Part shown: positions 34,969-46,122 of the stretch, piece by piece
How positions within the stretch are numbered: position 1 is the stretch's first letter
How the letters are laid out: the number at the start of each line of letters is the position of its first letter
Assembly: GCA_963820525.1 (NCBI GenBank)
Contig: CAWGAA010000001.1
Span: 2,272,001-2,336,000, forward strand
Length of the DNA: 64,000 nucleotides
Source: an uncultured Spirochaetota bacterium
Lineage (GTDB): Bacteria; Spirochaetota; Spirochaetia; SZUA-6; Fen-1364
Direction of reading: 5' to 3'
The notes under the pieces: model-generated
Told to the model about the DNA's origin: nothing
Databases searched by the model: none
Seen by the model: the letters and a program-made list of their open reading frames with translations, nothing else
Translations under genes and position numbers: made by a program

Positions 34969-35444
34969 CGATCGCCTCCCAGGTCCCCTGACAGCCCACC
35001 CTTGGACAGAAAGGCGGCGACCTGGTCGGGGGTGACTATGTAGGTGGTCGCCATGCGGTCCACCCACGTGTAGTCCAGCTTCTCGTCGCTCTTGTATTTG
35101 GCCTCCACCTCCTTGTTGAACCCCTTGCCGGCGAGGGCCATCTCTCCGCTCGACGCGATCTGGCTCACGTCCTCGGAGCCCGCCTTGAGCACGTACTTTT
35201 TTGTCGAAAGGGCGGAGAGGCTCACCCATCCCTGCTTGCCGGAAAAGCTCACCTTGGCCCACGCGCCCTGGGTGGACTGGACCTCGACCCGGTCCGTATA
35301 GGCGAGCTTGGCGAGGACTTTCCCCAGGAAGCTTGGCGTGGCCCTGATGAACGTCTCCTTGACCGAAACGCTCATCTCATCGCCAAAGGCGGCGGCCGTA
35401 CAGATGAGCAGAACGGCTGCCCACACAATCCGCAATCGCGACAT
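34965..35444 (-). CDS. Secreted SH3b-domain protein
   Basis: Signal peptide; IRATPSFLGKV..GAWAKV..GWV; ALAGKGFNKEVE tail. Confidence 0.8.
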   Translation of the reverse strand: MSRLRIVWAAVLLICTAAAFGDEMSVSVKETFIRATPSFLGKVLAKLAYTDRVEVQSTQGAWAKVSFSGKQGWVSLSALSTKKYVLKAGSEDVSQIASSGEMALAGKGFNKEVEAKYKSDEKLDYTWVDRMATTYIVTPDQVAAFLSKGGLSGDLGGDR

Positions 35445-35554
35445 GGGGACCCTCCTCTCGCCGGGCGCGGCGATCCTTCCCGCCATGGTAGCGAGAATCC
35501 CGCCCGTTGTCATCATTCTCTTGATTTTTTCCCGTCTTTCTGTACACCAGAAGC

Positions 35555-36208
35555 GTGACGGCCAAAGAGAGGAAAGAGGCGCTCCTCGGCATCGGCCAGA
35601 GGCTCTTCGCGCTCCAGGGGTATCGCGATGTGAGCGTCCGGGACATCACGGAGGCGGCGGGCCTGGGGACGGCCAGCTTCTACACCTACTTCCCCAGCAA
35701 GGAATCCTTCTACGCCCAGATCATCGACCGGCTCGAGCAGAGAGAGATCAAGGAAATCGAGAGGCGGGTGGGCGGGTTCCAGTCCCCGCTCAACAAGCTG
35801 AAAGCCCTCTTCCGCTCCATCATGAGCGACATGCAGAGAAACGAGATCCTCCGCGGCGTCTACGCCCGGGAGAAGCGCTTCCTGTACCCCGGCCTGGCAG
35901 AGGGCACCCTGCGTGAAACCGGCCTTCCCGCCTACTTCGAGGGGCTGGTCGAGAAGATACTGGCGGAAGGCGCCAGGAAGGGGATCTTCCGCACGAGCGT
36001 GTTCAGGAATCCCAAGCAGATGCTGCTCGCCATCTTCAGATCGCTTCTCATGGACAGCCGGCCCGGCAGCGCCGAGGATCTCATCTCGGACGTGTCCCTG
36101 CTGGTGGAGCGCGGGATAAAGAGGTGGCTGCGCCTGCGCATGAGGGATGAGAGGCTGGACAGACGGGCCTCGCGGATCCCCGGAAGCCCTGAAAAACAAA
36201 CCGAATAA
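35555..36208 (+). CDS. TetR/AcrR family transcriptional regulator
   Basis: [29 protein letters not shown]. Confidence 0.9.
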
Positions 36209-36366
36209 TCCATTCGAATATTCGGCCCGCATTCCCCGCGCGCGGCCCCGGGGGCGGGATTCTCGCGAAAAACCCCGCGTTTTTCGATGATTTTTGGTAT
36301 TCCCGGCGCATTCTGTTGACATTGACATCGACGAATGACCAGATGGTTTTTGCGGGGAGGAAGAAT

Positions 36367-37158
36367 GTGATCGACGTTCTGGCCATCCGTGGTGGAAACG
36401 ACAAATCAGGCATGCCTGAGAACGTGCGGGAAGTGTGCATCCGCCGGGGAGAGATCGTCGGGGTGGTGGGGCCGACGGGAAGCGGAAAAAGCTCCCTGAT
36501 CGCGGATATCGAGCAGCTGGCCCAGGGCGACACACCGACGCGCAGGCACATCCTGATCAACGGCCGCGAGCCGCTGCGGGAGGAGCGCACAGACCCGAAG
36601 AGAAAAATAGTGGCCGAGCTCTCGCAGAACATGAACTTCCTTGCCAACATGTCGGTGGGCGATTTCCTGCGGCTCCACGCCAAGTGCAGGAGGGCTCACG
36701 GCGTGGAGGCCGCTCACGTCATCGAGCTTGCCAACGGGCTCACGGGAGAGCCGATCAGGGAGGACGAGGAGCTCACCATCCTGAGCGGCGGCCAATCCCG
36801 CGCGCTCATGGTGGCCGACGTGGCGCTCATCAGCGACTCCCCCATCGTATTGGTGGACGAGATCGAGAACGCAGGGATCAAGAAGCACGATGCCCTGAGG
36901 CTCCTCTCGGGCCACGGAAAGATCGTTCTCGTGGTGACCCACGACCCGGTGCTCGCCCTGATGGCCGAGCGGCGGATCATCATGAAAATGGGCGGCATGG
37001 CGAAGGTGGCCGAGACCTCCCGGGGAGAGAAGATCCTCGCCCAGAGGCTTCGGAGGATGGACGAATGGATGCTCACCCTGCGGGAGCTGGTCCGGCAGGG
37101 CGAGCCGCTTGAGGACGTGACCCATCTCGCGGGGGTGCAATCGGGGATCATGGCGTGA
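36367..37158 (+). CDS. Stand-alone ABC-type ATPase (no permease)
   Basis: [51 protein letters not shown] before GTG 36367. Confidence 0.88.
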
Positions 37159-37856
37159 AGCTCATCATCGTTGCCGGGACGCCCGGCTCCGGCAAAACCT
37201 CCATCCTGGTGAACGCCGTGAGGCTCCTCAAGGCGGGCGGACGGTCGGTTTCCGTGGTGAAGATCGACTGCCTTGCCACCGACGACGACGAGCGCTACGC
37301 GCGGCTTTCCATCCCGACTCTCGTCGGGCTCGCCAAGGACGTCTGCCCGGATCACTACACCGTCTACAATATGGAGGAAATCCTCCAGTGGGCCAACGGC
37401 CTCTCGACGGAGTTCCTCCTCGTGGAGACGGCGGGGCTCTGCCACAGGTGCGCGCCCTACACTTCCGGATCCGCCGGGGTCTGCGTCATCGATGCCACCT
37501 CGGGACCAAACACCCCCTTGAAGGTCGGCCCCCTGTTGAGCACGGCCAACATCATCGTGATCACCAAGGGAGACGTCATCTCACAGGCGGAGAGGGAGAT
37601 CTTCCGGGAGCGCCTCTTGGAGATGAATCCCCGGGCAATGCTGATCGACGCCAATGGCTTAAGCGGTCAGGGCGCAGCCGAGCTCGTGGCGCTTGTCCGG
37701 GACTGGCCGGAGGTGAATCTGGAAGACGAGCGGCTGCGGCACACGGCTCCGCTTTCCGTATGCACCCTCTGCGCGGGAGAGACCCGGGTGGCGCGGGAGC
37801 ACCACCGGGGGATCCTGCGGCGCATCGACGGTTTCCAGTCCTACACGGGTGAGTGA
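37155..37856 (+). CDS. HypB/UreG/CobW-like SIMIBI GTP-binding protein, Cys-rich
   Basis: [45 protein letters not shown] overlap. Confidence 0.85.
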
Positions 37857-38523
37857 AGTGAAGAGTGACCCCGCCCGGCACCTCCCCGGCCACAACTGCG
37901 GCGCATGCGGCCACGCGCGCTGCGACTCTTTCGCCGCCGCGCTCGCGGAGGGCAGGGCGGGCGTCACGGACTGCCTCGTTCTCCAGCAGGAACGCTACAG
38001 CGGCCAAAGGAGGCTCCTGGAAGAGCTTTTCGGGGGCCGGGAACGGGAGCGGGTGGGACCACGGCCCGAAAAACCCGTGGGGCTGATAGACGGATACGAG
38101 GCGGATTTCGTTCTCGCTCCCCTTCGGGGGGAGGGATCGTGCCGGGAGATTCTCATGCAGGTGACTCCTTCGGCGGTGGGCGCCGGGGACGTGATTCGCT
38201 ACAGGCCCTTGGGATGCCCGGTCACCCATTTCGCGCGGATCATAGAAAAAAGAGACGGGCTTCTCGTGGTGCATGTTGTTGGCCCGCGGCACAGGCTCGG
38301 GGACGAGAGCTTCAACTTTGCGGAAATCGGCCTGTGCATGGTGATCGGTTTCGAAGGCGAGGTCCGGGGCACCCCGCCCGCGGTGGGCGAGACGGTGCGG
38401 TTCATGCCGGCCGAGTGCATGATGCAGAAGGTCCATTCCGGCGTCGTGGTGAGCTGTGAAGGAAAGAGAGTGCGACTCGAAGGGATAGACCTGAAGGTCT
38501 GGGCCCCCCCGGTGAAAAGATGA
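37849..38523 (+). CDS. Fe-S cluster-binding protein (RnfB/AcsC N-terminal-type 4-Cys domain + Cys-rich C-terminal domain)
   Basis: [14 protein letters not shown]...[31 protein letters not shown]. Confidence 0.82.
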
Positions 38524-39809
38524 ATCGCCATTACCACCTCTCGTGCGTGGCTTGCGGAAAGGCGCACGAGGACTCGAAAGAGGGTTTCTTCCTGGACTGC
38601 ACGGAGGAGCATCCCCCTTCCCTGCTTCGGGCGGTCTACAACAGAAAGGATTTCAACGTCAGGGAAGACCTCAGCGGAATCTTCCGCTATCTCGACTGGC
38701 TTCCCGTTCGAAGGTCTCTGGAATGCGGCGGCCGCCCCGTGGTCTACAGGAGCGAGCGGCTCGCCGGGAAGGTGGGCCTCGAGAGGCTGTTCGTCGCTTT
38801 CAGCGGCTACTGGCCCGAGCGGGGCGCGGGGATGGAGACATGCAGCTTCAAGGAGCTTGAGGCCCTGGCCGTTCTTGCCCGAATCCCCCTTGAAAGCGAG
38901 AAAAGCCTCGTGGTTTCCTCGGCGGGCAACACAGCCCGCGCCTTTCTCCAGATAGCGTCCCTCAATCGCATCCCCATCCTGGTTGTCGTTCCCGAGTCCG
39001 CGCTCCCCGACATGTGGATGACCGTGGAGAGGCACCCCGTCATCAGGCTGGCCGTCGTGAAGGGCAATGCCGACTACCTGGACGCCATCGAGCTGGGCAA
39101 TGCGATCGCCACCCTCGACGGCTTCCACCCCGAGGGGGGAGCCCGGAACATCGCCCGGCGTGACGGCATGGGCACGGTGCTGCTCTCCGCGGTGGAAGAG
39201 CTGGGTGAGATTCCCGCGCATTATTTCCAGGCCGTGGGAAGCGGGACGGGGGCAATCGCGGCCTGGGAGATGGCGGTGAGGCTCACAGCGGACGGCAGAT
39301 TCGGCTCGCGCGGAATGAGGCTGCACCTGGTGCAGAACGAGCCTTTCGCCATCATGACCCGCGCCTGGCAGGCGGGAAGCAGGGAGCTCCCCCAAACGGA
39401 TCCCCTCGAGGCGAAGAAAAAGATCGCCCTGATGCATTCCCGCGTGCTCTCCAACCGGAAGCCTCCCTATGGAATCGCCGGCGGAGTGTTCGACGCTCTT
39501 TCGGACACCGGTGGGCTGATGTATTCGGTTTCCAATGAGGAGGCGCGGGAGGCGGGCGGCCTCTTCGAATCCCTGGAGGGCGTCGATCTCGACCCCGCGG
39601 CAGAGGTGGCCCTCGCCGGAATGATCCAGGCCGTAAAGGCGGGAAGCGTGAATCCGGAAGAGACGGTGCTGCTCAACGTCACCGGCGGGGGGAGCGCACG
39701 GCTGGCGGCGGAGGGCAGAGCGCGGAAGGTGGAGCCTGACTTCATTTTCACGCCGGAGGACGCGAAGAGGATTCGAAGCGTTGAAACCCTGTTGATCAAG
39801 GCGAGCTGA
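38520..39809 (+). CDS. capA: Cysteate synthase
   Basis: FSGYWPERGA, TCSFKELEA, SSAGNTARAF, EGGARNIARRDGMGT, YFQAVGSGTG, VLSNRKPPY, LLNVTGGG, recalled as cysteate synthase motifs; adjacent to a cysteate acyltransferase-like gene. Confidence 0.87.
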   Translation: MNRHYHLSCVACGKAHEDSKEGFFLDCTEEHPPSLLRAVYNRKDFNVREDLSGIFRYLDWLPVRRSLECGGRPVVYRSERLAGKVGLERLFVAFSGYWPERGAGMETCSFKELEALAVLARIPLESEKSLVVSSAGNTARAFLQIASLNRIPILVVVPESALPDMWMTVERHPVIRLAVVKGNADYLDAIELGNAIATLDGFHPEGGARNIARRDGMGTVLLSAVEELGEIPAHYFQAVGSGTGAIAAWEMAVRLTADGRFGSRGMRLHLVQNEPFAIMTRAWQAGSRELPQTDPLEAKKKIALMHSRVLSNRKPPYGIAGGVFDALSDTGGLMYSVSNEEAREAGGLFESLEGVDLDPAAEVALAGMIQAVKAGSVNPEETVLLNVTGGGSARLAAEGRARKVEPDFIFTPEDAKRIRSVETLLIKAS

Positions 39810-39823
39810 GGAGGTCCGGCTTC

Positions 39824-41068
39824 ATGGTTGATCTGTTCGACAAGTGCAGGGGAGAGGGGGGGTATTTCGGCGCCTTCCGAGTCAAGGATGACATGTACTA
39901 TTCCCGGCCCGTTCTGGAAGGAACCCCGGGGCCCCGGATGACCTTTCAGGGAAAAGAAGTGGTCGTGTGGGCCATCAACAACTACCTCGGGATGGCGGGA
40001 AACGCCGAGGTGAAAAAGGCCGCCGCCGCATCCCTGGAGCGGTGGGGCACCTACACCCCGATGGGCTCCCTGATGCTCACGGGCAACACCGAGGCCCACA
40101 TGCGGCTTGAGCGCCTGCTTTCCGAATTCGTCGGAAAGCAGGCCGCAAACCTCTTCAACTACGGCTACCTCGGGGTCATCGGAACCATCAGCGCCCTGGT
40201 GGGGCCCGAGGACGTGATCGTCATGGACCGCCTCAGCCACGCAAGTATCGTGGACGGGGTGGTCCTCGCCTCGGCCGGCAGGCGCTTCCGGCCCTTCAAG
40301 CACAATGACCTCGACAACCTCGAGTTCCATCTCAAGGGGGCAAACCGGGACAGGAAGGGCGGCATCCTCATCGTCACCGAAGGGGTGTACGGGATGAGGG
40401 GAGACCTGGCCGACCTCCCGGGCATCTGCGCCCTGAAGGAGAAGTACGGGGCGCGCCTGTTCGTTGACGACGCGCACGGCTTCGGCGTGGTAGGGGAGAA
40501 CGGGCGCGGGATCGGGGAGCACTTCGGCGTGCAGGAGAGGATCGACCTGTACTTCTCCACCTTCGCCAAGTCTTTTGCCGCAATCGGAGGCTTCACGGCC
40601 GGGGAAGAGGAGCCGATCCGCTACATCAAGTACAACGCCCGCACCAACGTGTTCGCCAAGAGCCTCCCCATGGTCTTCGTCGATGCGATAGCGACCTCAC
40701 TCGAGGTGATCAAGAGCAGGCCGGAGCTTCGTCGGCGCATGTGGCGGATCTCGGAAAGGCTTCAGAAGGGCCTCACGGACCTCGGCTACGACATCGGAGA
40801 CACCAGGACACCCATCACCCCCGTGTACGTGCCGGCAGGCGACGTTCAGACCGCCATGGCGATGATCCGGATGCTCCGGGAGGAATACGGGATCTTCGTT
40901 TCCGGGGTCATGTACCCCGTGGTCCCGCCCGGGGTGGTCATGTTCCGGATGATTCCCACCGCCTCCCACACGGAAGAGGACGTGGACAGGACCCTCTCCG
41001 GGTTCAAGAGCATGCGAGACCGGCTGAAGCTGGACTTGAGCCAGAAGCCCTCGCTGAAGAACAGGTAG
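39824..41068 (+). CDS. capB: Alpha-oxoamine synthase, cysteate C-fatty acyltransferase type (CapB/SulA-like)
   Basis: NNYLG, SHASIVDG, TEGVYGMRG, DDAHG, YFSTFAKS (PLP Lys), YIKYNARTNVFAKSLPM (Lys where SPT has FSAS), RMIPTASHT; GAGGAGG RBS in a 14-nt spacer after cysteate synthase. Confidence 0.8.
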   Translation: MVDLFDKCRGEGGYFGAFRVKDDMYYSRPVLEGTPGPRMTFQGKEVVVWAINNYLGMAGNAEVKKAAAASLERWGTYTPMGSLMLTGNTEAHMRLERLLSEFVGKQAANLFNYGYLGVIGTISALVGPEDVIVMDRLSHASIVDGVVLASAGRRFRPFKHNDLDNLEFHLKGANRDRKGGILIVTEGVYGMRGDLADLPGICALKEKYGARLFVDDAHGFGVVGENGRGIGEHFGVQERIDLYFSTFAKSFAAIGGFTAGEEEPIRYIKYNARTNVFAKSLPMVFVDAIATSLEVIKSRPELRRRMWRISERLQKGLTDLGYDIGDTRTPITPVYVPAGDVQTAMAMIRMLREEYGIFVSGVMYPVVPPGVVMFRMIPTASHTEEDVDRTLSGFKSMRDRLKLDLSQKPSLKNR

Positions 41069-41205
41069 ATCAGGGCTCACGTTGAAGGCGCGGGCCCGTG
41101 TGCCGCAGCGAGAAAAAACGGGCGCGCCAGCCATGGGGCGCCCGCTGCACGCCCGCTGCTCTTCCTTGACACGCGGCCGCGATTCAAGGACACTTGCCGC
41201 TGATC

Positions 41206-42132
41206 ATGAGTCAGCGGCGGTCGGACAGGTTTGCCGGGAGGCCATGGCAGTCTCCCACGCTCATGGTATGCGCCTTTTTGCTTGCCGCCCTGCTCTCCTC
41301 CGGCTGCGGTCCGAGCCGCGGCGAGGTCGCCTCCACCTCAGCTTCGGCCAACTCCACAATCCAGATCACGGGGTCCGACACCCTGGTCAACCTGGCCCTT
41401 GCATGGGCCGAAGCCTACATGAACCTGCACCCCGACGTTCGTATCTCCGTGACGGGAGGCGGCTCGGGCACGGGCATCGCCTCCCTGATAAACGGCACGA
41501 TCAACATCGCCGACGCGTCCCGCGAAATGACGGCGGAAGAGATCGCCGCGGCGCGGAAGAACGGAATCGATCCCGTTCGATTCACGGTGGCCCTCGATGC
41601 CATCGCCGTCGTTGTCAACCTCGAGAACCCCGTCACGGGCCTTACCCTGCCCCAGCTCTCGCAAATCTACACGGCCAGGATCTCCACCTGGAGTGAAGTA
41701 GGCGGCGACAACCGTCCCATCGTGCTTCTCTCACGCGAGTCCAACTCGGGAACCTACGTATACTTCCTCGAGCGCGTCGTGCGCCTGGGAGAGAAAGGCA
41801 ACAGCGCCCTGTTCTCCCCCGACACCCTGCTGATGCCCTCATCCGAGGGGATAAGCGTCGAGGTGAAGCAGAACCCGAACGCCATCGGCTATGACGGCCT
41901 CGGCTACGTCACCCCCCAACAGAAGGTTGTCGCGGTCGCTTCCGAGCCGGGCAGGCCGTTCGTTCTTCCCTCCTCGAAGACGGTCCTGGACGGCTCGTAC
42001 CCGATCGCCCGGCCCCTGTTCATGTACACGGCGGGCGAGCCCTCCGGGGCGACCAGGCAGTATCTGGACTGGATCATGACCGACGGCCAGGCCATCGTGA
42101 AAAACCTCGGCTTCGTGCCGCTCAAGGAGTAG
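41206..42132 (+). CDS. pstS: Phosphate ABC transporter substrate-binding lipoprotein
   Basis: Lipobox SSGC; GSDT, GGGSGTGI, ADASR, SRESNSGTY, YPIARPL. Confidence 0.93.
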   Translation: MSQRRSDRFAGRPWQSPTLMVCAFLLAALLSSGCGPSRGEVASTSASANSTIQITGSDTLVNLALAWAEAYMNLHPDVRISVTGGGSGTGIASLINGTINIADASREMTAEEIAAARKNGIDPVRFTVALDAIAVVVNLENPVTGLTLPQLSQIYTARISTWSEVGGDNRPIVLLSRESNSGTYVYFLERVVRLGEKGNSALFSPDTLLMPSSEGISVEVKQNPNAIGYDGLGYVTPQQKVVAVASEPGRPFVLPSSKTVLDGSYPIARPLFMYTAGEPSGATRQYLDWIMTDGQAIVKNLGFVPLKE

Positions 42133-42137
42133 GGAAA

Positions 42138-43049
42138 ATGAGCGCGGCGAAGGACCGGCAGTCAACAAGGGCGCGCCGATGGGAAATCGCCATCGAAGCC
42201 TTCATCCGGGCCCTTGGCTTCTCCACCGTCGCCTTGGTCTGCCTTATCTTTTTGTTCCTGCTTCGCGAAGGGCTTCCCGCCTTCTTCGAGGTCGCCCCCG
42301 GAAATCTTTTTAGCTCCCACTGGTATCCCACTTTCGGCTTCTTCGGCACCCTGCCGCTCATCCTGGGCTCCATTCTCGTCACGCTGGTGGCCATCGTGAT
42401 CGCGCTGCCCCTGGGGGTGGCCACCGCCGTATTCGTCCGGGAGGTGGCGCCGGGGTGGGTCCGCGAGATCCTCAAGCCGATGATCGAGATCCTGGCCGGA
42501 ATTCCCTCCGTGGTGCTGGGATTCTTCGGCATGACCATCATCGCCCCGTTCGTGCGCCAGGCCCTCGGCGCGCCCACGGGCCTTACGGCGTTCACCGGCG
42601 CCCTCGTGCTCGCCTACATGAGCCTTCCCACGATCATCAGCGTGGCCGAAGACGCGCTGGACGCGGTTCCCAAGGGCTACCGGGACGCGGGCCTGGCGAT
42701 GGGAGCGACGAAGTGGCAGACGATCTGGCGGGTGGTGGTCCCCGCGGGACGCTCCGGGATCCTCACCGCCGTCATGCTCGGCATGGGGCGCGCCATCGGA
42801 GAGACCATGGCGGTGATGATGGTGACGGGAAACGCGGCGCGCATGCCCCTCGATTTTTCCTCGCTCATGGAGCCGGTGCGAACCATGACGGCCACCATCG
42901 CCGCGGAGATGGGTGAGGTGGCCCGGGGGAGCACCCACTACCACACCCTGTTCGCCATCGGAATCATCCTCTTCCTCATCACCTTCGCCACGAACCTCGC
43001 CGCCGCATCGGCGATCTTCAAGAAGCGGCGCCAGGGAGGGCTTCGCTGA
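42138..43049 (+). CDS. pstC: Phosphate ABC transporter permease
   Basis: EILAGIPSVV, GRAIGETMAVMMVTGN. Confidence 0.95.
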   Translation: MSAAKDRQSTRARRWEIAIEAFIRALGFSTVALVCLIFLFLLREGLPAFFEVAPGNLFSSHWYPTFGFFGTLPLILGSILVTLVAIVIALPLGVATAVFVREVAPGWVREILKPMIEILAGIPSVVLGFFGMTIIAPFVRQALGAPTGLTAFTGALVLAYMSLPTIISVAEDALDAVPKGYRDAGLAMGATKWQTIWRVVVPAGRSGILTAVMLGMGRAIGETMAVMMVTGNAARMPLDFSSLMEPVRTMTATIAAEMGEVARGSTHYHTLFAIGIILFLITFATNLAAASAIFKKRRQGGLR

Positions 43050-43894
43050 TGAACCGCTACCTGGTCCAGCGCCTCGGTTTCATCCTCCTGGGCGCGATTG
43101 CCCTGATCGTGGTCATCCCCATCCTGATCGTGGTGGCAACGATCGTGGCCAAGGGCCTGGGGGCGATGAGCTGGGAGTTCCTCTCCTCCATGCCCCGGGG
43201 CGGCATGAAGGAGGGGGGCATCCTTCCCGCCATTGTCGGGACGGTCCTCCTCACCCTGGGCTGCGCGGCGGCCGCGGTGCCCGTCGGGGTTGGAGGGGCG
43301 ATCTATCTTTCCGAATACGCGCGCGACACGCGGCTCACGCGGGCGATACGCCTTGCCATCGTGAACCTGGCGGGAATCCCCTCGATCGTGTACGGGCTCT
43401 TCGGGCTGGGGATGTTCGTCCTGTTCTTCCGCTTCGGCGCCTCGATCCTTGCCGGGTCGCTGACCCTGGCGATCATGACCCTTCCGGTGATCATCTCCAC
43501 GGGAGAGGAGGCGCTGCGCTCCGTGCCCGTGGAGTTTCGAACCGTGTCGGCCAGCCTCGGCGGCACGCGCTGGCAGGGCATCCAGAACATCGTGCTACCC
43601 CAGGCTCTTCCCGGAATCATCACGGGAGTGATCCTGGGGCTCCTCCGCGCCGCGGGAGAAACGGCCCCCATCCTTTTCACGGTGGCCGCCTTCTACCTTC
43701 CCCGCCTGCCCAGCTCGCCGTTCGACCAGACCATGGCCCTGCCCTATCACCTCTATGTCATCAGCACGCAGGTGCCCGGCATGCCCTCCAAGGTTCAGTA
43801 CGGGACCGCCCTCGTGCTCCTGGCCTTCGTTCTCTCGCTCAACGTGGTCGCCACTCTCATCAGGAGGCATTTCCGGAGGAAGAGGCAGTGGTAG
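43049..43894 (+). CDS. pstA: Phosphate ABC transporter permease
   Basis: IYLSEY, NLAGIPSIVYGLFG, RAAGETAP. Confidence 0.95.
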   Translation: MNRYLVQRLGFILLGAIALIVVIPILIVVATIVAKGLGAMSWEFLSSMPRGGMKEGGILPAIVGTVLLTLGCAAAAVPVGVGGAIYLSEYARDTRLTRAIRLAIVNLAGIPSIVYGLFGLGMFVLFFRFGASILAGSLTLAIMTLPVIISTGEEALRSVPVEFRTVSASLGGTRWQGIQNIVLPQALPGIITGVILGLLRAAGETAPILFTVAAFYLPRLPSSPFDQTMALPYHLYVISTQVPGMPSKVQYGTALVLLAFVLSLNVVATLIRRHFRRKRQW

Positions 43895-43905
43895 AGGGCA
43901 GATCC

Positions 43906-44664
43906 GTGGTCAACCCCAAGATCATCATTGAAAGCCTTTCCTACTCCTATGGAGGCAAGTCCTCGCTCGAGGATATCAGCCTCTCCATCCCGGGCAAGGC
44001 GGTCACCGTCTTTTTCGGCCCGGCCGGCGGCGGAAAGACCACCCTGATGCGCCTGATCAACAGGCTCAACGACCTGGTGGGAGAAACCCGCATGACGGGA
44101 AGGATCCTCCTCGACGGTGAGGATATCTATGCGCCGAACACCGACGTGACGCGCCTGCGCCGCCTCGTGGGCATGGTCTTCGCCCTGCCCCTCCCCCTGC
44201 CCGGCACGATCCGGGAGAACGTCGTCTACGGCCCACGCCTTGCGGGAACGCGGAACAAGGCAACGCTTGAGGGAATCATCGAGCGAAGCCTCGCCCAGGC
44301 GGCACTCTGGGGCGAGGTGAAAGACCGCCTGGACAGCCCCGCTTCGAGCCTCTCCGGGGGCCAGCAGCAGAGGTTGTGCATCGCGCGCAGCCTCGCCCTG
44401 GAGCCGGAAGTGCTCCTCCTCGACGAGCCGACCTCCGGCCTGGATCCGATCTCGACGGCCAAGGTGGAAGAATCCCTCCTGGAGCTCAAGAAGAGCTACG
44501 CCATCATCATGGTTCCCCACAGCGTCGGGCAGGCGGCCCGGATCGCGGATTACGCCGCCTTCTTCCTCATGGGCCGGCTGGTGGAGTTCGACGAGGGTCC
44601 CACCGTCTTCACCTCTCCTCGGGAGAAGCAGACCGAGGACTACATCACGGGCAGGTTCGGGTAG
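43906..44664 (+). CDS. pstB: Phosphate ABC transporter ATP-binding protein, divergent copy
   Basis: [42 protein letters not shown]-loop reads VFALP. Confidence 0.88.
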   Translation: MVNPKIIIESLSYSYGGKSSLEDISLSIPGKAVTVFFGPAGGGKTTLMRLINRLNDLVGETRMTGRILLDGEDIYAPNTDVTRLRRLVGMVFALPLPLPGTIRENVVYGPRLAGTRNKATLEGIIERSLAQAALWGEVKDRLDSPASSLSGGQQQRLCIARSLALEPEVLLLDEPTSGLDPISTAKVEESLLELKKSYAIIMVPHSVGQAARIADYAAFFLMGRLVEFDEGPTVFTSPREKQTEDYITGRFG

Positions 44665-44667
44665 GCC

Positions 44668-45435
44668 ATGGGTGGAATATCGGTTGATGGGCTTTCTTTC
44701 TCCTATGGCAGCCGACTGGCGCTGTCCGACGTGCGGGTCGAGATCGGGGAGCGGAGGATCACCGCCCTGATCGGCCCGTCGGGCTGCGGCAAGTCCACGT
44801 TCCTCAGGTGCCTCAACCGGATGAACGACACGATCCCCTCTTCCCGCGTGAAGGGGAGCGTGAAGCTGGACGGCCAGGACATCTATGCTCCGGGCACCGA
44901 CGTGGTGGCGCTTCGAAGGCGCGTGGGCATGGTCTTCCAGAGACCCAACCCCTTCCCCCAGTCCGTGTTCGACAACGTCGCCTTCGGCCCCCGCGTGCTG
45001 GGCACGCACAGCGGCAGGGAGCTCGCCGACGCGGTGGAGCAGAGCCTGCGGGGCGCAGACCTGTGGAACGAGGTGAAAGACTCGATGTCCCAGGACGCCC
45101 TTGCCCTATCGCTGGGCCAGCAGCAGCGGCTGTGCATCGCGCGCGTGATCGCCGTGAAGCCCGAGGTGATCCTCATGGACGAGCCCTGCTCGGCCCTCGA
45201 CCCCATTGGCACGCTTCGCATCGAGGAGCTGATGCGGACCCTGGTGAACGACTACACCATCGTCATCGTGACGCACAACATGCAGCAGGCGGCGCGGGTT
45301 TCCGACTACACCGGCTTCTTCTGGCTGAACGAGGAGAGGGCGGGAATACTGGCGGAGTACGGGCCCACGGAGGAGCTTTTCACGAGCCCGCGGGACAAGC
45401 GTACTGAAGACTACATCACCGGCCGATACGGATAA
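44668..45435 (+). CDS. pstB: Phosphate ABC transporter ATP-binding protein
   Basis: [45 protein letters not shown]. Confidence 0.93.
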
Positions 45436-45450
45436 CAGGAGGGCATTGTC

Positions 45451-46122
45451 ATGCCACGGGAAAGATTCGAGCACGAACTGCAGCGCCTGCAGGCGGATGT
45501 CCTCGCGCTGGGACATGTGGCGCAGAAAGCGCTGGTTGATTCCGTCGAGACCCTCAGGCTGCAGGATCTGGACAAGGCCCGCGCGCTCATCGAGGGAGAC
45601 CGCGCCATCAATGAGAAGCGCTTCGCACTGGAAAACGAGGTCATCACCCTGATCGCGACCCAGCAGCCGATGGCGGGAGACCTCCGCATCCTCGCCGAGG
45701 TGCTGGAGCTCGTCACCGAGATGGAGCGCATCGCGGACTACGCCAAGGGCATCGCGAACATCGCGCTCATGATCGGCAAGGAGCCCCTCCTGAAGCCCCT
45801 GGTCGACATTCCCCGCATGGCCGCCAAGGCGAGCGATATGCTGGGCCGGGCGCTGGACGCGTTCATCCGCAGGGACGTGGATCTGGCCCGCGCCATCCCC
45901 AAGGAAGACGTCGAGGTGGACGCCCTCTACGAGCAGATCTACAGGGAGCTGGTCACCTACATCATGCAAAACCCGAAGAACATCGATCAGGCCACCCGCC
46001 TCACCTGGGTGGCCCACAACCTGGAGCGCGTTGCCGACAGGGTGGGAAACATCTGCGAAAGGGTGGTTTTCTCCGTCACGGGCAAGATCGAGGAGCTGGC
46101 GGGGCCCCCGGAGACGCAATAG
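45451..46122 (+). CDS. phoU: Phosphate signalling protein PhoU
   Basis: QQPMAGDLR, EMERIADY, NLERVADR. Confidence 0.95.
   Translation: MPRERFEHELQRLQADVLALGHVAQKALVDSVETLRLQDLDKARALIEGDRAINEKRFALENEVITLIATQQPMAGDLRILAEVLELVTEMERIADYAKGIANIALMIGKEPLLKPLVDIPRMAAKASDMLGRALDAFIRRDVDLARAIPKEDVEVDALYEQIYRELVTYIMQNPKNIDQATRLTWVAHNLERVADRVGNICERVVFSVTGKIEELAGPPETQ

Follow-up and report, generated by a model that had tools for sequence, protein, structure and literature searches.

A conserved ATPase, GTPase and Fe-S protein trio linked to cysteate synthase and ComA, a candidate source of sulfite for sulfonate synthesis in a spirochaete and in archaea

In methanogenic archaea, genes for an ATPase, a Ni2+-binding GTPase and an iron-sulfur (Fe-S) protein with a COG2000 domain lie beside genes of coenzyme M (CoM) synthesis, as presented in the Figure 2 legend of PMC12068725 (PLoS Genet 2025), which gives their role as unknown; the word sulfite does not occur in the text of that article. 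Here we describe a homologous gene trio in a bacterium, an uncultured member of the Spirochaetota, within a 64,000-nucleotide stretch of DNA that we call the window (assembly GCA_963820525.1, contig CAWGAA010000001.1, positions 2,272,001 to 2,336,000). Like the methanogen genes of that legend, the trio of the window has the same gene order and stands beside the sulfite-consuming first enzyme of a pathway; unlike them, it is bacterial and joined to a lipid acyltransferase instead of ComDE or ComF, and CoM synthesis is not implied. The co-localisation of the trio with CoM genes in archaea has already been published, and the link to sulfonolipid genes in bacteria appears to be new: neither the module in bacteria, nor its union with a sulfonolipid operon, nor its complementarity with CysDN/adenosine 5'-phosphosulfate (APS) reductase was found in print, the supplements of PMC12068725 aside. 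As a whole word, "COG2000" was found in the MMP16 paper of 2025 with preprints and in one unrelated paper, and no paper was found for the Methanothermobacter locus tags MTH1671-1677, which are those around ComA (MTH1674).

The two enzymes beside which the trio is found both consume sulfite. ComA is described as a magnesium-dependent enzyme that uses phosphoenolpyruvate and sulfite, and cysteate synthase as a pyridoxal phosphate enzyme that uses phosphoserine and sulfite; their products differ, CoM in one case and a lipid in the other. In the capnine pathway of Bacteroidota, cysteate synthase (CapA) is followed by cysteate-C-fatty acyltransferase (CapB/SulA) and then by a 3-ketocapnine reductase. 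A four-step scheme of sulfonolipid synthesis from phosphoserine is given in the abstract of PMC11211663, and the conversion of phosphoserine and sulfite to cysteate by cysteate synthase is given in the Figure 2 legend of PMC12713407. As to the sulfite itself, small sulfite reductases running in reverse (alSir, Fsr and Dsr-LP) have been proposed as its source for CoM in PMC6286981, in a passage that calls the source unclear and has no other suggestion. Methanothermobacter is described as growing on sulfide and as unable to use sulfate. For the origin of the sulfite that strict anaerobes put into sulfonates, the trio brings a concrete candidate across two domains of life.

Linkage of the trio to cysteate synthase and ComA

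The operon occupies positions 36367-41068 of the window on the plus strand and consists of five co-oriented, translationally coupled genes. These are predicted to encode a divergent, permease-less ATP-binding cassette (ABC)-type ATPase (gene 1, 36367-37158, 263 amino acids), a cysteine-rich G3E-family GTPase (gene 2, 37155-37856, 233 amino acids), a COG2000-type Fe-S protein (gene 3, 37849-38523, 224 amino acids), cysteate synthase (gene 4, 38520-39809, 429 amino acids), and an alpha-oxoamine synthase of the cysteate-C-fatty acyltransferase type (gene 5, 39824-41068, 414 amino acids). Genes 1 and 2 share a GTGA overlap, genes 2 and 3 overlap by 8 nucleotides (nt), genes 3 and 4 share an ATGA, and a 14-nt spacer containing GGAGG separates genes 4 and 5. 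A sequence-only reading of the window that preceded this analysis had listed the same five co-oriented genes and the same junctions, which proved identical base by base. The host genome (G000) is an assembly of 5.05 Mb in 4 contigs, 96.67% complete, and the window has a G+C content of 64%. Based on a homologue search and a concatenated tree, the nearest relatives of the operon genes are found in metagenome-assembled genomes (MAGs) of Spirochaetia.

A search with gene 3 returned 578 proteins and 217 confirmed places in species-representative genomes, of which the best 80 loci were examined; the best named homologues belong to Methanobacterium, Methanothermobacter, Methanopyrus and Spirochaetia. 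The GTPase gene lies directly before the Fe-S gene in every one of these loci (80/80), and the ABC gene precedes the pair in 74, four of the six misses being contig ends; in loci L049 and L065 no ABC gene was found upstream, over 4.1 and 2.1 kb of sequence, respectively. Identities to the window proteins across the 80 loci amount to 54-77% (ABC), 54-84% (GTPase) and 44-70% (Fe-S), and the trio copies of Halobacteriota fall within the same ranges. The trio is a fixed unit from spirochaetes to methanogens, and its arrangement is more than chance.

The partners of this unit are sulfite-consuming enzymes. ComA lies directly upstream of the ABC gene in Methanobacteria (57 of the 80 loci), and it occupies this place also in 2 of 14 metagenome contigs. 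The nine Halobacteriota loci examined, from the ten genomes with a strong match, all show the order cysteate synthase-ABC-GTPase-Fe-S (9/9), followed by ComD/ComE in L121 and L123. The order of the window, with the trio followed by cysteate synthase and acyltransferase, recurs in the Bacillota loci L067, L074 and L080 and in the metagenome contig L147, and in Bacteroidota (six loci) trio and synthase are separate, four of the six loci having a pair of genes for a histidine kinase and a LuxR-type regulator in front of the trio. The linkage between trio and synthase was counted in no fewer than four different arrangements; as gene order varies between lineages, the linkage has been kept through rearrangements. 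The sequence-only reading had mentioned, as unverified, a similar trio near cysteate synthase in the CoM loci of methanogens, and the nine Halobacteriota loci together with the legend in PMC12068725 bear this out.

In the loci with Methanobacteria-type synteny we also observed a gene similar to F420-0:gamma-glutamyl ligase (PF01996, 290 amino acids, 88-92 bits) after the trio; it is present in 59 of the 80 loci, all 59 being of this type (for example L010:8662-9537 and L018:8800-9666).

Co-occurrence was followed in 16 trio-bearing genomes checked individually and in separate samples of Methanobacteriota, Halobacteriota (151 genomes) and Spirochaetota (201 genomes). All 16 genomes encode either a cysteate synthase above the cut-off or ComA, with ComA present in G007 and G013, which are without cysteate synthase. 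In the Methanobacteriota sample ComA accompanies every full-length match to gene 3 (62/62 genomes) and is found in 78 of the 89 others. Cysteate synthase is present in all Halobacteriota with a strong (10/10) or a distant match (22/22), these 32 being the matches that cover the C-terminal domain of gene 3, versus 38 of the 119 remaining genomes. Four Bacteroidales with a distant paralogue but without cysteate synthase could have broken the pattern; ComA was found in all four, at 296-302 bits. The background frequency of cysteate synthase is low: 22/201 in Spirochaetota, 2/151 in the order to which G015 belongs (Bacillota) and 32/151 in that of G006 (Bacteroidota); a strong gene 3 match is rare in the same three samples, at 1/201, 1/151 and 2/151. 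The sequence-only reading had inferred that the first three genes are a module dedicated to cysteate synthesis, which might make or deliver sulfite anaerobically or mature a metallocluster for that purpose, and the comparisons made here support this reading. It had made the proposal depend, among other things, on an enriched linkage of the trio to cysteate synthase or to sulfur genes in other genomes, and the linkage is indeed very strong. Its further suggestion, that the trio tracks cysteate synthesis itself and not one end product, holds as far as the linkage is concerned and is too narrow as to cysteate, since the partner in Methanobacteria is ComA. The genomic pattern supports the view that the trio accompanies the synthesis of sulfonates from sulfite, through cysteate synthase as well as through ComA.

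Three trio-less Methanobacteriota have an open reading frame (ORF) about 200 nt after ComA (G285:C21:80175-80390, G324:C2:82468-82671 and G325:C201:3782-3970). These ORFs encode 74-98 amino acids with the N-terminal Fe-S domain only, and may be what is left of a longer gene or else a minimal version of it.

In a concatenated trio tree (41 rows, quick method), the window groups with five Spirochaetia with a support of 100, and the bacterial clades join the Methanobacteria with a support of 99, the Halobacteriota forming a clade of their own; the tree, which is unrooted and came with composition warnings, gives no direction of transfer. By this grouping, the trio has moved between domains.

Distant paralogues of the trio extend the picture. 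Those of Halobacteriota share 43-46% (ABC), 37-41% (GTPase) and 27-31% (Fe-S) identity with the window proteins, and in 11 of the 22 genomes their coordinates put them no more than about 2 kb from cysteate synthase. A ComF-like COG1900 gene stands between cysteate synthase and the distant trio in L129 and L130, with ComDE after the trio, and COG1900 genes neighbour the trio in L121 and L123 too. In a further set of paralogous trios, in L131/L132 (genomes G433, G384), L143/L144 (G738, G721) and L141/L142 (G154, G201), every cluster includes a gene for a NifS/IscS-like cysteine desulfurase. The order is ThiF-ThiS-ABC-GTPase-cysteine desulfurase-Fe-S in the archaeal L131, and ABC-GTPase-desulfurase-Fe-S in L143 and L144 of Bacteroidales, where a gene for a CRP-type regulator lies beside it on the opposite strand. 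In G154 it is desulfurase-ABC-GTPase-Fe-S-Rrf2-PstS-like binding protein-permeases-ATPase-CysC-CysD-CysN, in a genome with no match to PF01077 (siroheme sulfite reductase, NIR_SIR). As the paralogues sit with desulfurase, ThiF/ThiS, COG1900, Rrf2 and CysC/CysD/CysN, the whole family belongs to sulfur metabolism. These contexts would fit a machine for sulfur redox chemistry or sulfur transfer; a sulfite-reducing direction or Fe-S assembly would fit them as well.

Predicted functions of the five proteins

Gene 4 reaches 514.7 bits with the NCBIfam equivalog TIGR03844 (cut-off 324.9) versus 69.6 bits with the best threonine synthase model, and 396.2 bits with the PDB entry 9k3c, "Cysteate synthase", versus 46.3 with threonine synthase. 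It is the sole copy above the TIGR03844 cut-off in the 5.05-Mb genome. By these profile and structure matches it is a predicted cysteate synthase, which would convert O-phospho-L-serine and sulfite to L-cysteate. Gene 5 belongs to the Aminotran_1_2 family (151.5 bits, cut-off 19.7) and over residues 1-403 matches two "Cysteate-C-fatty acyltransferase" structures, 28eh_A (412.8 bits) and 7u7h_A (394 bits); lesser scores are obtained with the best serine palmitoyltransferase (247.4 bits), Kbl (226) and BioF (167), and the protein stays under the cut-off of every BioF, Kbl and serine palmitoyltransferase equivalog. It is a putative orthologue of the cysteate acyltransferases, forming 3-ketocapnine from cysteate and an acyl thioester. 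The enzymes of genes 4 and 5 are accordingly predicted to open the synthesis of a capnine-type sulfonolipid as its steps one and two, and the four matches (TIGR03844, 9k3c, 28eh and 7u7h) agree with the names that the sequence-only reading had given to both.

The two proteins resemble the Bacteroidota capnine pathway in matching solved cysteate synthase and acyltransferases, and differ from it in that the host is a spirochaete. The pair of genes is kept in four of five related spirochaetes (L085-L088; the fifth locus is cut), and it is also present in other spirochaete families (L106, L107) and in the Bacillota loci L067, L074 and L080. No candidate for a 3-ketocapnine reductase or an N-acyltransferase is found inside the five-gene unit, no search aimed at these steps having been made. 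The Bacteroidota trio genomes with a synthase locus (n=4) have no acyltransferase within 1.5 kb on either side of the synthase. The window thereby predicts sulfonolipids in spirochaetes (synthase above the cut-off in 22 of the 201 sampled) and in a few Bacillota; none of the matches listed in a search of titles and abstracts concerned a spirochaete sulfonolipid.

Elsewhere in the window genome there is a ComA-family gene (G000:C1:679496-680242; L110:7455-8297, minus strand), which scores 279 bits with PF02679 and only 90 bits with the archaeal ComA model TIGR03849. It adjoins a PrpD/MmgE-like gene and an integron-type integrase, and may encode a second sulfite-consuming enzyme.

The three trio proteins are each recognised at the level of a broad family (Pfam cut-offs 25 bits for ABC_tran, PF00005, 20.7 for cobW/HypB/UreG, PF02492, and 23 for PF04060). 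Gene 1 scores 58.6 bits with ABC_tran; Walker A, Q87, LSGGQ, the Walker B residues D164-E165 and the H-loop H192 are invariant in 18 relatives. It reaches at most 53 bits with any NCBIfam transporter model, all far under the cut-offs, and its best solved relative, BceA, gives just 61.6 bits. No membrane-domain or permease gene lies inside the unit, be it in the window or in the neighbourhoods that were scanned in archaea, Bacteroidota and Bacillota. The sequence-only description of the ATPase as permease-less is upheld, the unit having no permease gene and the downstream pstC and pstA having a pstB pair of their own.

Gene 2 scores 47.2 bits with PF02492 and has the P-loop, ExxG and TKGD motifs, with C64-P-D-H67, C96-x2-C99, C203-x2-C206 and H217 invariant (conservation was assessed over 22 sequences including distant paralogues, and separately over 17 sequences). 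The CPDH aligns to the CPH motif of UreG (4hi0, 25.3 bits). The protein is well under the cut-offs for nickel chaperones (45 versus 121.2 bits for hypB, TIGR00073; 22.8 versus 204.2 bits for ureG, TIGR00101), and no hyp or ure genes were found in the window operon or in the neighbourhoods scanned. By its motifs and scores it is thus classified as a G3E P-loop GTPase, but not as HypB or UreG proper. The two NTPases of the trio resemble HypB/UreG/CobW and SufC in the P-loop, ExxG, TKxD and Cys-Pro-x-His motifs and in the ABC ATPase without a membrane partner; unlike HypB and UreG, the GTPase of the window has two extra invariant CxxC pairs. General scans showed no hydrogenase, urease, SufB/SufD or cysteine desulfurase genes in the window operon, SufB/SufD and IscU not having been specifically searched.

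Gene 3, for which we take the family name COG2000 from PMC12068725, where the genes presented have the same domain layout and gene order, scores 47.9 bits with PF04060. The Cys-rich HypB/UreG-like GTPase and the Fe-S protein named in the sequence-only reading are both recovered at these Pfam scores. The N-terminus is an RnfB/CFeSP-like [4Fe-4S] domain with C17, C20, C25 and C42 (Cx2Cx4Cx16C), and the C-terminus a beta-rich domain of about 150 residues with C123, H127, C190 and H196. These last four residues are invariant over 23 sequences, distant paralogues included, which suggests a putative second metal site. Full-length identity to the methanogen proteins is 52-59%, and the mean column identity of the trio across alignments is 54-72%. 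A confident structure model was obtained, with a predicted local distance difference test (pLDDT) of 82.9 and a predicted template modelling score (pTM) of 0.73. Sequence profile matches to the PDB are confined to residues 5-64, within the N-terminal Fe-S domain. Foldseek found no PDB structure similar to the model at E<=0.001, and a wide search with VIA aligned the N-terminal domain to RnfB (Z 5.6). For residues 81-220, VIA gave a Z of 4.0 at best, the matches being small beta-barrels, from phage tail proteins and from PilZ, and no fold was assigned; the ESM Atlas returned the protein's own family alone (score 0.76). No longer proteins containing the C-terminal domain in fused form turned up, which is weak evidence.

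A link of the trio to selenium was considered as a possibility. Gene 2 has a weak match (24.5 bits) to a CobW-related selenoprotein model, and in a single locus, L062:8912-10991 (minus strand) of Draconibacterium orientale, SelD-like (AIRS) and rhodanese-domain genes are convergent to the trio.

Proposed sulfite supply and competing explanations

The six trio-bearing spirochaetes and the one trio-bearing Bacillota genome are, by their gene content, without a recognisable sulfite-making route despite their sulfite-dependent enzyme. PF01507 (CysD/CysH) has no match in either (0/6, G000 included, and 0/1), and neither has PF01077 (0/6, G000-G005, and 0/1); PF01747 (Sat) was absent from the five trio-bearing genomes tested, again including G000. 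The control searches with PF01507 and PF01747 matched in 13 and 5 of 14 reference genomes, respectively. For comparison we used those trio-less spirochaetes with cysteate synthase that are at least 90% complete (12 of 21), and PF01507 is present in 11 of these 12. The hypergeometric probability of 0/6 versus 11/12 is about 4e-4, which is optimistic since the genomes are related. Gene order points the same way: an operon of G211 reads cysN-cysteate synthase-acyltransferase-APS reductase, and in G208 a divergent APS reductase gene adjoins the cysteate synthase-acyltransferase pair, so that classical sulfite-making genes occupy the slot of the trio. Several trio-less spirochaetes have APS reductase without sulfite reductase, as if the route had been retained there solely to make sulfite for the lipid.

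Like CysD/CysN with CysH, the trio would be a supplier of sulfite encoded at the same operon position, and by analogy each set is made up of an enzyme that uses ATP, a GTPase and an Fe-S protein; the two sets are non-homologous, and the trio's host G000 has neither PF01507 nor PF01747. In G063, the one trio-less spirochaete of the 12 that has no CysD/CysH match, the gene after cysteate synthase encodes a YeiH-family transporter of the putative sulfate exporter type (L134:9635-10714, 129.5 bits, under the cut-off).

ComA and cysteate synthase share only sulfite as a substrate, and therefore the trio most simply relates to sulfite. The lack of a known sulfite route, the complementarity with CysD/CysH and the sharing of a slot favour supply over mere handling of sulfite. 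We thus lean, on comparative grounds, towards the reading that the trio supplies sulfite, or an equivalent sulfur(IV) donor, to sulfonate synthases in anaerobes living on reduced sulfur that cannot reach sulfite by reducing sulfate. As Methanothermobacter cannot use sulfate, the sulfur input of the trio is probably reduced sulfur.

On this reading, the five genes are a single operon that makes the sulfonate head group for a sulfonolipid of the capnine type: the trio would provide sulfite, cysteate synthase would add it to phosphoserine, and the acyltransferase would join the cysteate to a fatty acyl thioester. The mechanism that we envisage is more speculative. Catalysis, or the carrying of sulfur, would fall to the COG2000 protein, which would have a [4Fe-4S] domain for electron transfer and a 2Cys/2His metal site at which sulfide or persulfide sulfur may be oxidised to the level of sulfite; persulfide sulfur is a possible input, hinted at by the desulfurase in the paralogous clusters. 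The GTPase and the ABC ATPase might build the metal site, or couple nucleoside triphosphate (NTP) hydrolysis to uphill electron removal or gate the electron flow. The GTPase has six invariant cysteines and belongs to a P-loop class shared with metal-inserting and cluster-bridging NTPases. Six electrons must be taken from sulfide to form sulfite, and the potential at which they leave is considerably higher than that of the carriers common in anaerobes. Since sulfide oxidation is energetically uphill and the module holds two NTPases, an energy input is plausible.

We put forward the full form of this proposal tentatively, as possible rather than probable: a siroheme-free, NTP-driven system that makes sulfite without oxygen by oxidising the sulfur of sulfide or persulfide, supplies CoM synthesis in many methanogens and sulfonolipid synthesis in anaerobic bacteria, is exchangeable in evolution with CysDN/APS reductase, and has been passed between archaea and bacteria. 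Such a system would lie outside all characterised means of obtaining sulfite. It would address the same need as alSir, Fsr and Dsr-LP, that of sulfite from sulfide in methanogens; unlike it, those enzymes contain siroheme (PF01077), are absent from the trio-bearing spirochaetes and Bacillota genome, and are unlinked to ComA or cysteate synthase in the examined loci. The idea that the trio instead drives a siroheme sulfite reductase in reverse was rejected on the same absence of PF01077 from these bacteria. If the module makes sulfite, this implies new sulfur redox biochemistry, completes the CoM pathway, with relevance to inhibiting methane formation, and accounts for the synthesis of sulfonolipids, described as bioactive lipids, by anaerobic bacteria of gut and sediment. 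With three small soluble proteins the question comes within reach of experiment, also in bacteria, which are handled more easily than methanogens.

Several observations weigh against sulfite supply by the trio. In five related spirochaetes the trio is not adjacent to the synthase, and many sulfonate makers do without it: 21 of the 22 sampled spirochaetes with cysteate synthase, 78 of 140 ComA-bearing Methanobacteriota and 38 of 70 Halobacteriota with cysteate synthase have no trio. The trio is thus far from universal among sulfonate makers, and other sources of sulfite must exist. The complementarity with CysH fails in Bacteroidota, where PF01507 matches were found in all five trio-bearing genomes; at a guess, the two-component or CRP-type regulators near the trio in this phylum could reflect conditional use. 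Sulfite-reductase-type genes are present in all 12 trio-bearing archaea tested, so that a sulfite reductase running in reverse is still possible for the archaea. Two members of one spirochaete genus (G154 and G201) carry a distant trio without cysteate synthase, and G154 is also without ComA. Many of the genomes are related, and the co-occurrence counts overstate independent support. All three proteins are unlike the known siroheme enzymes and the known enzymes of sulfur oxidation, and to our knowledge a six-electron oxidation by an Fe-S protein of 224 amino acids is without precedent. The case for supply is built throughout from comparative genomics.

Among the other explanations, we consider it unlikely that the trio is an assembly machine for metallocentres, Fe-S clusters or sulfur trafficking that serves another client, the GTPase acting as a chaperone, the ABC protein as SufC does and the COG2000 protein as a scaffold, with ComF/MMP16-type metalloproteins or some sulfite-forming enzyme as possible clients and an indirect tie to sulfonates. 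G3E GTPases are metallochaperones, the invariant CPDH aligns with the UreG motif, the desulfurase and the Rrf2 (IscR/CymR-like) regulator give the paralogous clusters the look of an Fe-S assembly operon, and COG1900 genes neighbour the trio in L129, L130, L121 and L123. Yet no single client co-occurs with the trio: its constant partners, ComA and cysteate synthase, are unrelated and not known Fe-S enzymes, and the clusters of the window and of Methanobacteria contain no ComF-like gene. A 1:1:1 order and a conservation as high as 54-72% are also more typical of the subunits of one enzyme, and the idea merges into the best explanation if the client is the COG2000 protein itself. Quite unlikely, in our view, is that the trio acts on sulfite that comes from outside or from another enzyme, as a non-siroheme reductase, a detoxifier or a carrier, so that little free sulfite surrounds the enzyme consuming it. 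This would account equally well for the linkage to both sulfite users and for the Bacteroidota trio genomes, which have CysD/CysH in 5/5 and a sulfite-reductase domain in just 2/5. It would also suit the paralogue of G154, which lies with a sulfate-type ABC transporter, CysC, CysD and CysN in a genome without PF01077, where sulfite reduction would complete assimilation. Sulfite harms anaerobes and methyl-CoM reductase. Its toxicity to methanogens is reported in bioRxiv 10.1101/2024.03.05.583561. It would, however, leave the trio-bearing spirochaetes and the Bacillota genome without a recognisable source of sulfite, and would not explain why sulfite-making APS reductase and CysN stand in the same slot of trio-less relatives; Methanothermobacter, in addition, is described as making CoM from sulfide alone.

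A merely incidental adjacency, with the ABC ATPase serving a phosphate (pst) transporter encoded downstream and the other two proteins being housekeeping ones, is highly improbable. The pst set does begin 125 nt past the operon, and the separation of trio and synthase in the five related spirochaetes would be expected; but pst has two PstB ATPases of its own (328 and 368 bits) as against at most 53 bits of the trio ABC with transporter models, overlaps of four and eight bases couple the genes, and the linkage recurs across phyla and domains. That the ABC protein energises the pst system was rejected on the same two grounds, the PstB pair and the weak transporter scores.

Surroundings of the operon and further trio copies

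Upstream of gene 1, a non-coding stretch of about 450 nt (35917-36366) holds no convincing gene and is the presumed promoter and leader of the operon. Within it, a hairpin followed by a T-run (36266-36286) resembles a terminator on the plus strand. The start of gene 1 is placed at the GTG at 36367, with GGGGAGG 8 nt upstream; in-frame alternatives are a TTG at 36316 and an ATG at 36343. An Rfam scan of 35200-41300 returned no family, one chance-level match aside.

The downstream set is complete, with the order pstS-pstC-pstA-pstB-pstB-phoU at 41194-46122 on the plus strand. Between it and the operon lie a TTGACA (41166-41171) and a GC-rich hairpin with T-run (41124-41141) that reads as a minus-strand terminator, though the flanking genes are both on the plus strand. 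PHO4-family transporters of the phosphate type likewise follow the trio in L082 and L083. The adjacency of pst possibly reflects the use of a phosphorus-free sulfonolipid under phosphate limitation, the uptake of an oxyanion, or chance.

In a Spirochaetales MAG (L050:7504-7953), the trio GTPase matches as two overlapping pieces, which may be a frameshift or a pseudogene. A Methanothrix-labelled MAG (G014) has three copies of the COG2000 gene (L119, L120 and L111): one lies behind cysteate synthase, one belongs to a second trio at a contig end, and the third is solitary, preceded by a CysK-like PALP gene and a hexapeptide/DUF59 gene.

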